NCBI GenBank assembly: GCA_964016885.1
Contig: OZ024756.1
Location: 27,590,001 to 27,654,000, forward strand
Source of the DNA: Eledone cirrhosa
Lineage: Eukaryota
DNA length: 64,000 bases
Direction: 5' to 3'
Positions 9,880 through 19,665 of this stretch are shown piece after piece. The position numbers and the translations under genes were made by a program. The notes beneath the pieces were generated by a model that saw nothing but the letters and a program-made list of their open reading frames with translations, was not told where the DNA came from and did no database searches. Within the stretch, counting starts at the first letter, position 1. Every line of letters starts with the position of its first letter.

Positions 9880-10000
9880 TTATTCCGATGAAATGACAGT
9901 TGATAATAACATTGAAATATTGAATGTCTGCATAACTAATACTTTGTAGATAGCAGCTGTTTTCAGGTTATGTAACTGTTATAGAAACACGTGTCAATAA
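9880..10000 (+). ncRNA. Variant hammerhead ribozyme (CCGAUGA core, long stem II)
   Basis: UUAUU-CCGAUGA-a AUGACAGUU..AACUGUUAU a-GAAA-CACGUG-UC-AAUAA. Confidence 0.7.
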
Positions 10001-10834
10001 ATTCCTTTTAACTAAACTGTATCCATTAAAATCCTTCTATATATATATATATATATATATATATATATATATATATATAGAGAGAGAGAGAGAGAGAGAG
10101 AGAGAAAAGATGAAATCGAAAATACAACTGGAATTTTATTTTTTAAAATATATATATTTATTTGGTTCCTTTACCGTTTAGAACTGTGAAACCGGTAAAG
10201 GAACCAAATAAATATATATATATTTTTAAAAATAAGACTCCAGTTGCATTTTCGATTTCATCATTTTTTCTTTATACTTTCACTCGTGTAGCGAGAAGAA
10301 CAATTACACGCAAAGACATAACCACGTTTATGGTATAAATGAAGTCGTAGACTAATATTCTATTTAGTAAACCGAATGATTCGCGGCCTCGGAGTTAAGA
10401 ATAATGTAAATAAATTAATAGAACGAAAATGACAAAGGTCATTAAAATCAAAAAACAATAAAATCTATACATACACGCATCTATATACTTACATACACGT
10501 GCAAACGCGAAAACACCCGCCATGCATGCATATACATGCACGTACACATAAACACGCTCACACATACATAAACCCGCACGACACATGTACCCGCACACAT
10601 ACAAACGTATACACCAAATACACATAATATATATATATATGTGTGTGTGTATACATATAATTATATAAACGCATATAAATATACACACATAAATATATAT
10701 ATAGCGCACGCACACACATACCTACAGGTAAATACACATATGTTCACCAAACGTACATCAACCAAAACACAATGTGCACATATACACACCTTACATACGT
10801 GGAAACACGCATACACAAAATACACATTGTGTGT

Positions 10835-11070
10835 GTGAAGGCTTAGTGGTTAGAGCATTGGGCTTGCAATCGAAAGGTTGTGAGTTCAATTCTCGGTCCG
10901 GGTGATGTGTTGTTTCCTTGAGCAAGACACTTTATTTCACGTTGCTCCAGTTTACTGAGCTGTAGAAATGAGATGATAGGGACTGGGGTCCCTATCATTA
11001 AATTACCCAAGACACTTCGAACGAGATATACCTTGGAGGAGGCCAGCTAAACCTGCATAAGTGTGAGCTG
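10835..11070 (+). mobile_element. tRNA-derived SINE family 2 (other copies near 62295-62410, 49470-49760, 1970-2075)
   Basis: tRNA-like head ggcttagtggttagagc..gagttcaattc followed by conserved ccttgagcaagacactttatttcacgttgctcc. Confidence 0.75.
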
Positions 11071-11329
11071 TCACACACACACACACACACACACACACAC
11101 ACACACACACACACACACACACACACACACACACACACACACACACACACACATATATGTGTGTGTGTGTGCATGTGTATTACACACACACACACATATA
11201 TATAATAAATGTAATCTGAGTTTTTTGAATATTAATAATAATATTCGATTTGTTTGCAATTAAGCTAACAAGATCTCTTTTTTAAAGCCATGTCAGTAGA
11301 CTGAGCCCCTCATTCTTGCTCTTGTGTTG

Positions 11330-11515
11330 GCATGTTTTTGTTGTTTTGGGAATGGAGGATTTGTTTTTGGTTGTTAATGGTATCTAACCAGAGCTCTGTG
11401 TCTAGTACAGGTAATCGATGGTTGGGGTGTCTACTTGGGTAGTCTATAGTAACTCTAATGCTCTGGTGGATGGAGTTTGCTATTTGCTGGATGCTTTCCA
11501 TTGTGTTTTTCTCTA
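11330..11515 (-). mobile_element. Fragment of a PLE-type RT C-terminal region
   Basis: Translation TMESIQQIANSIHQSIRVTIDYPSRHPNHRLPVLDTELW resembles the motif D/E region of PLE RTs. Confidence 0.5.
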
Positions 11516-15301: not shown

Positions 15302-15358
15302 TGCTGACGATCGTTTCTTCCAGACAATGGAATCATCGAGTATGGAATCATCGGAGCA
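15302..15358 (-). ncRNA. Variant hammerhead ribozyme (CCGAUGA core)
   Basis: UGCU-CCGAUGA-UUCCA..UGGAA-GAAA-CGAUCG-UC-AGCA. Confidence 0.72.
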
Positions 15359-16640
15359 TATATAATGTTTAAACAAGTGATTACATTCCTAGTCCTTAGA
15401 ACATTCATTAAGATACATTATTATAGACAGTGTCAGTGACATCATATTGAAAAGCAAGAGTAACAAAATATTATATAAACATATACATGAATAAAACACA
15501 CACACACACGCACACACACACACACACACACACACACACACACACGGATGTAACGCATGCGCAAACGAAGCACACAGCACACAACACACAAAAACCAGAT
15601 GGTGTAGGACAGAACAAAGGAGAGATACAAAATAAAAACCCAATCACTGAGGAGGTCACGGAAATTTATAATAAATTGAAGTGAAACCAACAGGTACGTG
15701 TGTTTTTATTGGCAGTATGGCCCTCCCAAAGTTGAGCTATATATATATATATATAGTAATAATAATAAATATGAAGACTAAAATCCAAAGAGGGCTCGAT
15801 AAGGATAAATATATATCAAATATATAAAAACCGTGATAAGTAAATAAACATATAAATAAATTAATGAAAACACACACACGCATACACACACACACACACA
15901 CACACACACACACACACACACACACACACACACACACACACACACACACACACACACACACACACACACACACACACACACACACAATAAGATGGTGTAG
16001 GAGAGACACAAAATAACAAATCAGTCACTGAGGAGGTCACATTCTGTGACGAAAGAACTTTGACAATGTATAAACAACCATTCGGTTATTGAACCAACCA
16101 ACGGGAAATTTGTAATAAATTGAAGTAGTATATATATATATATATAGTAATAAATTGAAGTAGTACACACACACACACACACACACACATATATATATAT
16201 ATATATATATATATATATATATATATACATATATATATTGAGTATATGTTGCTTGTTTACCGACACCTCAGTATGCAGATTGGAGCACTCGACGAAGTAC
16301 GCAGGCTGGTTTGTTTACTCTGGAGTAATGTAAAATAATTAAGTCAAATATGTAAAATTTGGCTTCGTTTATTATAAATTATAGATATACTGCTATATAT
16401 ATTTCGGTGACAGCCATCATTGGCTGTGACCTCTTCAGGCAGTCCGAATTGGTGTGGGAAAGACAGGTACACATGTTGTTGAAGAGTGTTTTACTCCGTC
16501 AATACATCGATATGTCCAGCTCCTGGTTGTGTTGTTATTCCTCTGAGGATATGATTCCAGTTCCTCAGAGGAATAACAACATATATATATATATATATAT
16601 ATATATATATATATATATATATATATATATATATATATAT

Positions 16641-19495
16641 ATAAATAAGGCACTAAATTACGCATTCAAACATACAGACCTAACTAGCAATGAAATGCAC
16701 ATTATATTATCGGCTAGGAAAACATTGATAGAATTTAATGACCAACTATGAACGAGAGCAGATAGAGATAGCAATTTTGACATTACTATGGGATCATCCG
16801 ACTCAGCTCAGGTAACTGACCTTGTGGGCTTATTTTTAATCAATTCGCTACATAGGAAAATACCTGGTACTACCGGAGGTTTATATAGAGATGACATGCT
16901 TTTACTTATTGATAATAATAACTCTGAACTAAATAGAAAAAGAAAACAAATTACACAATTTTTTAATTACTTTAATCTAAAAATAGAAATTGAGAACAAC
17001 CATAGAATAGTCAATTTCCTAGATATAACATTAAATCTCAACACATGTCTTCACTATCCATTTCACAAGTTGAATGAAAACTTAAACTATGTCAGCTTTA
17101 ACTCTAACCACCCCAGATCTGTCAAAAACACTATAGTAAACTCTGTTCAAAAACGTATCTCTAGAATCTCGTCTAATAGAAAGATTTTCGACGAAAAAGC
17201 CCAGTACTACAATGAAGCGTTAGCTAGAGCAGGATATAGTGATAAGATTATGTACATAGATAATGATAGACAAACTAAACAAAATAACAACTATTTTAAT
17301 TACGGCCACAACCTTAACAACTATAATAGAAAGCATTACAATAATTCCAAAAGCCAAAAAAGAAATAGAACTAGGAACATAATATGGTTTGCCCCCCCCC
17401 TTCTCACTAAACATTAAAACCCACATCGCTAAACTATTTTTTAAAGCTCTTGATAATCGCTTCCATAGAACACATAGGTATCACTCAATTTTCAATAGAC
17501 ATACTATAAAATTAACCTACTCATCCACCAAAAATTTAGCACAAAATATTAATAGAATAAATAATAGGAACTTAAAACCTAGCGATAATAGCATAAATAA
17601 TATACAAGTTAACAAATGTAACTGTAGAGATAGATCTAAATGTCCGTTAAATAACAACTGCTTAGTTAAAAATATAATATACAACTGTAATGTTAAAACG
17701 GACTCTAATTCTTTTAACTACGTCGGTTCCACATCGACGGAATTTAAACTTCGCTATAATAACCACAAGAATTCTTTCACAGATCCAAGCAAAAAATCTT
17801 CAACAGCACTATCAGGCGTACTCTGGCAACTTAGGCAAGATAACGTTAGATATTCGACGGCTTGGAATATAGTCTCAAGAAGGATTCCTTTTAATTCATC
17901 CTCTGAGACATGTGACCTCTGCGCGGAGGAGATATTCTTTATACTAAAATCTAAAAATTCCCTTAATCTACGGACAAATTTATTCAGTTGCTGCAAACAT
18001 AGATTGAACTCAACTTTTAAATATAAATTTAAATTTAAAATGTAGTATATTTAGTTTGATTTGTAATTATTTGGGAAACTAGCCGATAAATCTTTCGATT
18101 TCTTCTTTTTATTTTTATCTTTATTTTAAACATTCTTCATGAAAAATTAAACTACCCTAAAAGTTGATGCTCCAAATATATCGAATAAACGTTACACTAG
18201 ATAAACTTCTATATTAAATATAAGAACATATGTAGACCAAATGGGCATCCTAAACTTTTGAAATGATTTCTGCTAGACGCGATTTGGTAAATAATTTTTA
18301 GCTTTATCTGTTTTCGACTCTGATGCTTATAATGAACTTGGCAATATATTGTCAATTAATTTTGAAGGGTTGATCTTTGTGGTCGATTTGCGTGGCATAT
18401 TATGTTTTTATTTTTATTATTTTAATATTTTTTAATATTTTTAATATTTTTAATATTTTTAATATTTTTATTTTTAATATGTAATATTTTTTAGTTTTCT
18501 ATTTTATTTATTTGTTTATTATTATTATTATTATTTTTTGTTTTTGTTTCTGATATTTTTATTAATATATTGAAATCTGTTCTCTATTTCTGCTTGATAG
18601 ATAATCATGTAGAGTAAAGACAAGAATAGTATTGTTAAAATTAATATAGACTCTATATATATGTGTATATATACACATATATGTATACTTAAATTTTTAT
18701 AGCACAATGAGAATGTTCTCCGTGTGAAATAGGGGTTTGCAGAGTTGATCACGTAAATTCACATCGATGTTTGTAGTTATCATATAAACATGAATTTTTA
18801 AAACTAGACATAAGATCATTACTTTTCACACATTATAGATACGTGTCTCATTCAGGAATACTGATATTTACATTATAATGCCTGGTTTTTATACGAACTA
18901 ATATTTCTACATTAAAACATAGGGTTTTTAAATTCTGCCTCGCCTATGTCTGGTTACTTTTCATTTTTCTCTCTATATAACGGCTGGTTTCTTTCCTAAC
19001 CACATATATCTCCCTTACATTAATACTAGAGCTAAATAAATAAATAAATAAATAAATAAATGTATCATTGATACGTCATTCAACGGATGTTCAACTACCT
19101 ACTTTTCTCTATATATATCTATCTCTATCTATTTCCTCTCTCTATATATCTCTCTCTGTTTCTTTACATGAAGTTCTTCTCTTTATCTATCTTTCCATCT
19201 CTCTATTTTGTTGCATGCATTTCTTCTTTTTTCTTCTTTTTCTTCGTTTTCTTTCTTTATTTCCTTCTTTCTTTCTTTCTTTCTTTCTTTCTGTTTACAA
19301 TTTTTCACTGCCAAATCAACTTTTTCAAATACAAGTCGATGTTGAACGGTATGTCAAATCTATTTATCTATAAAACTGTCTATATTGTATTTTGTCTGAA
19401 GAAGGCATAACATATTGTTAATATGATATCCCTGAAATATATATAATGAAATAAATATGGTTTTATAAATATAGTTTCCATTTATTTAATATCGT
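16641..19495 (+). mobile_element. Penelope-like retroelement (C-terminal GIY-YIG, probably Hydra clade), 5'-truncated and decayed
   Basis: RT motifs FDITMGSSDSAQVTDLVG, GLYRDD, VNFLDITL, NSNHP. Linker CNCRDRSKC (CxCx5C). GIY-YIG-type IIY..YVGST..FKLRYNNH, CDLC..E, LN.R. In-frame TGA at about 16749 and a frameshift in poly-C near 17395. The 1.4-kb 3'UTR ends in an HHR-like terminus, and both ends abut (TA)n. Confidence 0.9.
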
Positions 19496-19572
19496 ATATA
19501 TATATATATATATATATATATATATATCACGGAAAAAAGAGAATCAATGTTGCGACGAAAAGAATTTATTGG

Positions 19573-19665
19573 ACATATTACAATTGTTTCTCGGACGACC
19601 AGCTCGAGGCACGATCGATATGGTGATCACACCTGAATCTGAAATCACTCGGTCGTCGGATACGT
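19573..19665 (-). ncRNA. Variant hammerhead ribozyme (CCGACGA core, long stem II)
   Basis: ACGUAU-CCGACGA-(about 60 nt)-GAAA-CAAUUG-UA-AUAUGU, with a 6-bp stem I containing one G.U pair. Confidence 0.62.

Follow-up and report, generated by a model that had tools for sequence, protein, structure and literature searches.

The textbook base at position 4 of the hammerhead core is U, yet a 64,000-nt stretch of the Eledone cirrhosa genome (the window) contains four hammerhead motifs with C at this position (C4). This raises the question of whether these cores are decayed copies or an inherited state, and of how much self-cutting a C4 fold may still allow.

Four C4 motifs in the window

All four motifs lie where the original prediction had placed them and read as it had described. 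The F1 motif, a type I hammerhead (9880..10000, + strand), reads CCGATGA-92 nt-GAAA-CACGTG-TC, with a 5-bp stem I and a 92-nt stem II hairpin; C4 is at 9886 and the predicted cut falls after 9995. The F2 motif (11956..12061, + strand; CCGATGA-81-GAAA-CAATTG-TC) has a 3-bp stem I, an 81-nt stem II region, C4 at 11960 and a predicted cut after 12058. On the - strand, the F3 motif (15302..15358; CCGATGA-30-GAAA-CGATCG-TC) combines a 4-bp stem I with C4 at 15353 and a predicted cut after 15306, and the F4 motif (19572..19666; CCGACGA-62-GAAA-CAATTG-TA) combines a stem I of 7 bp, a G-U pair included, with a 62-nt stem II region, C4 at 19658 and a predicted cut after 19579. In a pattern scan of the window, a 6-nt palindrome accompanied 11 motifs, four C4 and seven U4; none of 30 block shuffles gave any. 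The predicted stem II range of about 30-90 nt agrees with these lengths; in F3, the 30 nt result from a 10-nt insertion private to the window copy, which is absent from 29 of the 30 other family rows, which run 20-21 nt.

Core positions C3, G5, A6, G8, A9, G12, A13 and A14 and the UH triplet are present in all four motifs, and the three-way junction, with an open stem I, stem II and A15.1-U16.1, is that of type I. The motifs depart from the hammerhead at U4 of the CUGA turn, replaced by C in 4/4, and at the basal R10.1-Y11.1 pair of stem II. A second core half, mostly decayed (CTAAGGA; 15393..15399, - strand), precedes the F3 core by 45 nt, and the family has CTAAGGA here in 13/21 rows and CTGAGGA in 2/21. 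Rescue of F3 by an upstream U4 core is thus ruled out, since the upstream half is mostly CTAAGGA; no upstream U4 core was seen in the 55 nt 5' of F1 and F2, nor in the F4 rows.

C4 is the majority base of four high-copy families

The four window motifs belong to four different high-copy families in the 3.0-Gb genome. C4 was found in 33/33 cores of the F1 alignment, 34/34 of F2, 26/31 of F3 and 27/32 of F4, and since C predominates in every one of these families it is an inherited state, not decay. Among the best 40 of 1,038 candidates scored for F1, 41 of the 42 matches listed were 100% identical across 161 nt. Genome-wide, the C4 pattern gave 15,479 matches against 249 for the reversed-pattern control, and the U4 pattern 24,522 against 401. 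The check proposed with the original prediction, whether C4 is the consensus of genomic copies, therefore bears out its view that C4 is heritable and that four parallel decays are unlikely.

Purines at position 4 (A and G together) gave 2,342 matches against 787 for the control. G5A on C4 cores gave 1,283 against 605, and in the 100 rows listed these were spread over different families. Amplification is also seen for an A6G family (CTGGTGA), which accounts for about half of the first 100 of 2,855 matches and for 5/5 in another set. In a scan that tolerated one further core change, C3, G5, A6, G8 and A9 were the majority base in 10/10 C4 clusters, and N7 and H17 were variable, as in working hammerheads. 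C4-G5 forms a CpG site, and CpG decay usually runs from C to T. Across 97 rows, CpG changes in the core were C>T in 10 cases and G>A in none, as compared with 35 and 12 at other CpGs (Fisher p=0.10).

Three motifs, and probably the fourth, lie at the ends of Penelope-like elements

We assigned F1, F2 and F4 to the ends of Hydra-clade Penelope-like retroelements (PLEs) by protein motifs and comparison by eye with Hydra-1_Obim. In the window, F1 is the 5'-truncated 3' end of such an element (9655..10040, + strand), whose end, at (TA)n, lies about 45 nt beyond the cut. An inverted piece of the far 3' end lies beside (TA)n (9587..9656, - strand), an arrangement of inverted ends like that published for Penelope-like insertions (PMC8557442 Fig. 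2 legend). The F2 fragment (11946..12120, + strand) comprises hammerhead and tail between (TA)n and flank, and the F4 fragment (19524..19892, - strand) has approximate ends. Elsewhere in the genome, the end of an endonuclease ORF lies 0.8-1.3 kb upstream of F1 in 13 loci, with a full element at L178; RT and endonuclease lie upstream of F2 in L303 and L304, and the endonuclease 1.9-2.1 kb upstream of F4 in L307-L309. For F3, the likeness of its sequence to 20-nt families flanking ORFs in L173-L176, L180 and L181 suggests a retroelement link, and F3 too would end a Hydra-clade element.

Direct copies of the motif surround the PLE ORF, in terminal repeats, for F1 (L178), F2 (L303) and F4 (L307-309), as well as for the 20-nt families (L175 and L180), which F3 resembles. 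Motifs precede element 3' ends by 40-230 nt and, in a tandem copy, the ATG by 210 nt; copies stop at (TA)n, and the distances of these ends from H17 are fixed. The F1 ORF has RWK at 49, DKT in place of DKG at 133 and YRDD at 364, with a GIY-YIG endonuclease at the C terminus, downstream of the RT. Compared by eye with PMC8557442, the F1 and 20-nt family endonucleases share the CxCX5C linker and CxxC and CxH around conserved E and N; Pfam returned no relevant family on five ORF pieces. The window also holds a comparator (16752..19453, + strand), in which a broken Hydra-type RT plus GIY-YIG ORF (16752-18045) is accompanied by a U4 hammerhead of its own (19388-19453, palindrome TATATA). None of 96 tail matches from five families started at the cut site, in loci all chosen for holding the full motif.

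Outside this genome, none of 120 pattern loci passed the stem filter in viral contigs (about a fifth of the collection scanned), where no relative of the F1 protein was found either. A partial scan of metagenome contigs left 2 weak passes among 119 loci, and none showed homology to PLE proteins.

C4 does not define a single subclass

The original prediction had suggested that C4, the palindrome and a long stem II may mark one subclass, a grouping that our results do not support. U4 families share the same build, as in F5 (34520..34641, - strand; 95-nt stem II region, CAATTG), and long-stem U4 matches number 22,986 in the genome; conversely, stem II regions are short (15-45 nt) in 8,091 of the 15,479 C4 matches. 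U4 sister families were found for F1, F2 and F4; sisters are about 80% alike around the motif, little else differs near the core, and no feature marking C4 motifs only was found. In the endonuclease tree, a single C4 clade was rejected (p-AU 2e-59), with five changes at position 4, at least three of them forced. Together, the U4 sisters, the shared build and the rejected clade indicate that C4 is not one subclass.

Pairing and predicted folds

All 10 C4 family representatives are paired at positions 2 and 3 of stem I and at positions 2, 3, 5 and 7 of stem II, with 3-5 pair types at each of these positions, in a test that is partly circular; their stem II regions span 20 to 94 nt. Canonical hammerheads have G10.1-C11.1 as the first stem II pair. 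This position was paired in 2/10 C4 versus 6/13 U4 representatives, and stem I was closed by a U-A pair in 10/10 versus 9/13. The stem II base mismatch also occurs in many published Hydra rows (PMC8557442).

The palindromic helix III, whose sequence differs among families, can pair between two copies, with computed energies of -6.4 to -10.3 kcal/mol for the 8-bp self-duplex; in a monomer, it added no stability in folding predictions. The hammerhead was the lowest-energy predicted monomer fold for 0/4 C4 motifs and likewise for neither of two U4 comparators. Rfam hammerhead clan CL00010 gave no match on any of the four C4 motifs at E<=10, as anticipated for standard models. However, it also missed five palindromic U4 motifs of the same stretch, its sole match being 20249-20293, so the miss is due to architecture. 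CYGANGA is accepted by at least one published descriptor (PMC13481778).

Comparison with known hammerheads

The closest relatives are the Hydra-clade PLE hammerheads (Craig et al. 2021, PMC8557442 File S2), likewise type I, near the element 3' end and with a short self-complementary helix III, a frequent extra mismatch at the stem II base, a protein with RWK, DKT and CxCX5C, and (TA)n flanks. However, 26/26 Hydra rows there have CUGA and short stem II hairpins with a loop 2 of 3-10 nt, whereas many E. cirrhosa families have C at position 4, and stem II regions of C4 and U4 families alike extend to 60-110 nt. Minimal dimeric PLE hammerheads (Cervera and de la Pena 2014, PMC4209133), as described in the available portion of that paper, share the weak palindromic helix III, predicted dimer cleavage and thousands of truncated solo copies, and are slow dimers. 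They differ in that the sole core change named in that portion is U3-A8 in Schistosoma, and in that the helix III insert of the E. cirrhosa motifs is 6 nt long and gives an 8-bp dimer helix.

Natural U4C is itself already known. The viroid U4C hammerhead, reportedly far slower in vitro and sufficient in vivo (Ambros and Flores 1998, as cited in PMC3088659), has the same core change in one viroid variant; here many families of the genome have it fixed, alongside U4 sisters. CYGANGA hammerheads of deep-sea RNA viromes (PMC13481778, available part) show the same C/U degeneracy among pattern-found natural motifs, but they are viral, pattern-gathered under a descriptor demanding canonical stems with G-C at the stem II base, and their lineages are not analysed in that part. 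The literature surveyed, one key paper aside, gave no instance of C4 fixed across whole families of animal retroelements.

Discussion

We consider it probable that the four motifs fold as type I hammerheads, each belonging to its own high-copy family, and that C4 is an inherited core state that has exchanged with U4 on several occasions and likely still permits self-cutting at a low rate; cleavage of C4 motifs is expected to be weak. Where an RNA spans two terminal repeats, its self-complementary helix III strands of 8 nt would join two motifs into a double hammerhead, probably assisted by the element's protein, and the 5' end of the ORF RNA would be defined by cutting of the repeat that lies upstream. 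Copies in the genome hold an intact motif with its downstream tail, so their template RNA had not been cut there. Speed of cutting is then dispensable, so that a pyrimidine swap that slows the U-turn without abolishing it can be fixed. With demand for speed relaxed, position 4 may toggle between pyrimidines in dimer-type retroelement hammerheads, and CpG mutation would drive it back towards U.

Several points weigh against this reading: C4 cleavage is a prediction, and the amplified A6G family means that amplification is no proof of an active core; the G10.1-C11.1 position is mostly unpaired; CUGA-region mutants of a type III hammerhead had low activity; the hammerhead is not the favoured monomer fold, although this is equally so for the U4 comparators; and transition bias by itself would make C commoner than A or G at position 4. 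The same A6G family favours the view, which we regard as rather unlikely, that C4 motifs are nearly or wholly inactive, the fold being kept for RNA dimerisation or for binding the element's protein near the start of reverse transcription while the core drifts. In a type III mutational scan, all CUGA-region mutants except a C3-G8 swap had low activity, U-turn mutants being weakly active (PMC9901934). The Anolis PLE hammerhead is protein-assisted, yet that element inserted in vitro without cleavage and no RNA-seq ends were found at the cut (PMC11167929), and Naiad PLEs thrive without canonical hammerheads (PMC8557442). Against a drifting core stand the retention of C3, G5, A6, G8 and A9 as majority bases while N7 and H17 vary, and the fact that purine-4 and G5A matches are few and scattered.

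Compensation of C4 by its context (the U2.1-A1.1 closing pair, the stem II base mismatch, dimerisation or a contact made by a long stem II), making it a true structural variant that cuts like U4, seems improbable to us. C4 families are indeed many and recent, as the identical F1 copies illustrate, and their stem I is uniformly closed by U-A; but the same contexts occur in U4 sisters, which differ little near the core, no C4-only feature was found, and stem II regions of C4 families range from 20 to 94 nt. We likewise doubt, if slightly less, that C4 cuts efficiently in its native setting of dimer plus element protein, with the repeated U4/C4 flips acting as a rate dial between the upstream-repeat cut and an intact downstream copy; if it did, U4 would be no fixed U-turn requirement in tens of thousands of animal motifs. 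That C4 arose separately in the four motifs as dead copies decayed, or that the motifs resemble hammerheads by chance, deserves almost no credence: the family alignments refute it, genome counts and shuffles speak against it, and CpG decay runs opposite to a change from U to C.

For surveys, fixing CUGANGA misses about 4 in 10 pyrimidine-4 motifs (15,479/40,001 matches, one pattern), and Rfam misses the whole palindromic architecture in the stretch tested. The need for hammerheads in PLE transposition has been described as unclear (PMC8557442). The U4/C4 sister families and the A6G family, all amplified, form a natural series for testing the role of the ribozyme in a retroelement, and side-by-side measurement of sister families would show how slow a kept core can be.

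C4 hammerheads in the window and across the genome

All four motifs with C at core position 4 (C4, CCGANGA, as opposed to U4, CUGANGA) that the original prediction placed in the window were present as described, at 9880-10000(+), 11956-12061(+), 15302-15358(-) and 19572-19666(-), hereafter families F1 to F4. A scan demanding hammerhead core, stem I and 6-nt palindrome yielded 11 motifs, four C4 and seven U4; 30 block shuffles of the window produced no such motif. U4 motifs with a TATATA palindrome, from two further families, lie at 7617-7682(+), 13673-13738(+), 13990-14044(-), 14275-14329(+), 16389-16443(-) and 19388-19453(+), those at 13990 and 14275 forming an inverted pair. 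At 622-664(-), 39576-39657(+), 60404-60442(-), 20249-20293(+) and 35001-35045(-) lie further U4 motifs, whose palindromes measure 4 or 8 nt, and two matches to Rfam Hammerhead_1 that score 31.7 and 29.1 bits, under the gathering score. Rfam matched none of the four C4 motifs, as anticipated for a variant missed by standard models, but five palindromic U4 motifs in 9800-20400 were likewise missed. F3-type elements carry, 45 nt upstream, a second core half that could use the same GAAA and helix III as the main core; it reads CTAAGGA at 15393-15399(-) and CTGAAGA in related subfamilies on another contig (G000:C1:21369192 and C1:5760299).

Searches of the 3.0 Gb genome, in which the window spans G000:C17:27590001-27654000, gave 1,038, 1,859, 1,053 and 1,708 first-look candidates for the four motifs, the best 40 for each being scored; with F1, 41 of the 42 matches listed were identical over 161 nt. 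C4 was the majority base in the fetched loci of all four families: 33/33 core-holding rows of F1 (two more lacked the core), 34/34 of F2 (one junction row dropped), 26/31 of F3 and 27/32 of F4, the last three including the window copy, with a small bias towards C4 because loci were best matches to a C4 query.

Genome-wide, the pattern C-x-GANGA-gap-GAAA-CRWWYG-TH, which excludes F1 itself and the TATATA families and whose matches are not copy numbers, occurred with C4 8,091 times at gaps of 15-45 (reversed-pattern control, 103) and 7,388 times at 46-110 (146); the U4 figures were 1,536 (137) and 22,986 (264). A4 and G4 together gave 2,342 matches (787), and G5A on C4 cores, rare and scattered, 1,283 (605). 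A6G gave 2,855 (493), one family making up about half of the first 100 listed. This amplified, Hydra-type family (core CUGGUGA, stem II region of ~97 nt; e.g. L437, G000:C1:65561832-65566580) speaks against a strict reading of core constraint.

Of 10 C4 family representatives, some non-independent, all were paired at positions 2-3 of stem I and at positions 2, 3, 5 and 7 of stem II, with 3-5 pair types, a result partly circular in that the motif scan itself demanded stems. The first stem II position was paired in just two, and N7 and the base before the predicted cut (H17) vary.

The host retroelement

A GIY-YIG endonuclease lies upstream of F1 in 13 loci. In the F1 locus L178, a reverse transcriptase (RT) frame of 614 residues with RWK, DKT and YRDD is followed, past a frameshift, by an endonuclease whose linker reads CxCX5C, and the predicted cut falls 210 nt before the ATG. 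Since RWK, DKT and RT plus endonuclease with this linker are given in PMC8557442 as marks of Hydra-clade Penelope-like elements (PLEs), we assign the F1 element to that clade; by eye, its protein resembles Hydra-1_Obim. RT and endonuclease precede F2 in two loci (L303 and L304), and endonuclease precedes F4 in L307-L309. No ORF-linked copy of F3 was found among the examined loci; its stem I and stem II pattern is that of ORF-flanking C4 families with a stem II region of ~20 nt. Downstream of H17, element copies run on for mostly 40-60 nt, or 130-230 nt, before terminating at (TA)n. Several F1 copies (L002, L004, L017, L026-L028) start no more than a few bases from window position 9842, ~40 nt 5' of the core, possibly a preferred truncation or inversion point.

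The second broken Hydra-type PLE ORF of the window, at 56964-59255(+), carries a DKT motif and what is left of an endonuclease. A tRNA-like head at 10837-10898(+), which scores 28.7 bits with the Rfam tRNA model, probably belongs to a SINE derived from a tRNA. A 377-residue open frame at 46761-47894(+) resembles, in its motifs, a galactosyltransferase-type glycosyltransferase, and we take 3673-4644(-), 32098-32712(+) and 21847-22254(-) to be remnants of non-LTR retrotransposon reverse transcriptases.

C4 is recurrent

The proposal that C4, palindrome and long stem II define one subclass did not survive comparison with U4 families sharing this build. Family F5, at 34520-34641(-), combines palindrome and long stem II with U4 in 31/32 rows and is endonuclease-linked. 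It is also found as partial tandems that repeat every ~742 bp (L312-L330), some downstream of an endonuclease remnant, which look like non-LTR retrozyme or pLTR arrays. Related U4 families (sisters) align closely with F2 and F4. Sister loci showed U4 in 2/2, 4/4 and 13/13 cases, a circular tally because they were fetched with the U4 pattern; by eye, sister-type rows numbered 2, 6 and 12 among the first 100 U4 matches listed, and the first 100 listed for C4 contained no such row.

An unrooted, long-branched tree of 23 endonuclease pieces (13 C4, 10 U4; 148 columns) assumed hammerhead linkage from same-strand adjacency, left out L403 (ambiguous family state) and L437 (A6G), and labelled L308 C4 by family, though that copy is itself U4. 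The F1 endonuclease grouped with that of U4 family L452 (support 96/90), the C4/U4 label required five changes, at least three forced by strong branches, and a single C4 clade was rejected (p-AU 2e-59). Gains and reversions of C4 are not separable on so short, unrooted and long-branched a tree; U4 is favoured as the older state by File S2 of PMC8557442, whose 26 Hydra rows all have CUGA.

Function of the C4 core

Lunse 2017 reportedly includes about 150,000 PLE-linked variants, and it, or figure alignments, might contain a case of C4 fixed in PLE families, of which the literature searched gave no report. CYGANGA descriptors are already in use, and C/T degeneracy is described for viral motifs in PMC13481778.

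Random decay in parallel at this base is barely credible, as the original prediction had argued, given the C4 majorities in F1-F4 and genome-wide matches far above controls; C4 is inherited. That it is a tolerated, slow-cutting variant seems to us rather probable. In the monomer, helix III can have only 2 bp and gains no predicted stability, whereas two copies would form an 8-bp duplex (-6.4 to -10.3 kcal/mol, predicted), in keeping with the model in which PLE hammerheads, described as cutting slowly in vitro, act as dimers (PMC4209133; PMC6765202). An inactive fold is a less likely but serious rival, because U-turn mutants had low activity in a type III hammerhead mutational scan (PMC9901934); in a viroid, U4C lowered activity yet kept it (PMC3088659). 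That C4 is a compensated variant appears improbable.

If C4 does cut slowly, this need not prevent spread. An Anolis PLE hammerhead is reported to cleave only in the presence of the element's protein, and insertion in vitro is possible without cleavage (PMC11167929). Because the examined genomic copies retain motif and downstream tail, they would have been made from RNA uncut at the downstream site; such templates, with cleavage dispensable for Anolis PLE insertion in vitro, make slow cutting compatible with spread. A U4C change that lowers but retains activity could then become fixed in PLE families. C4 is a real variant of the core, widespread within a retroelement ribozyme that is already known; its function is predicted, and it is recurrent, not a single subclass.
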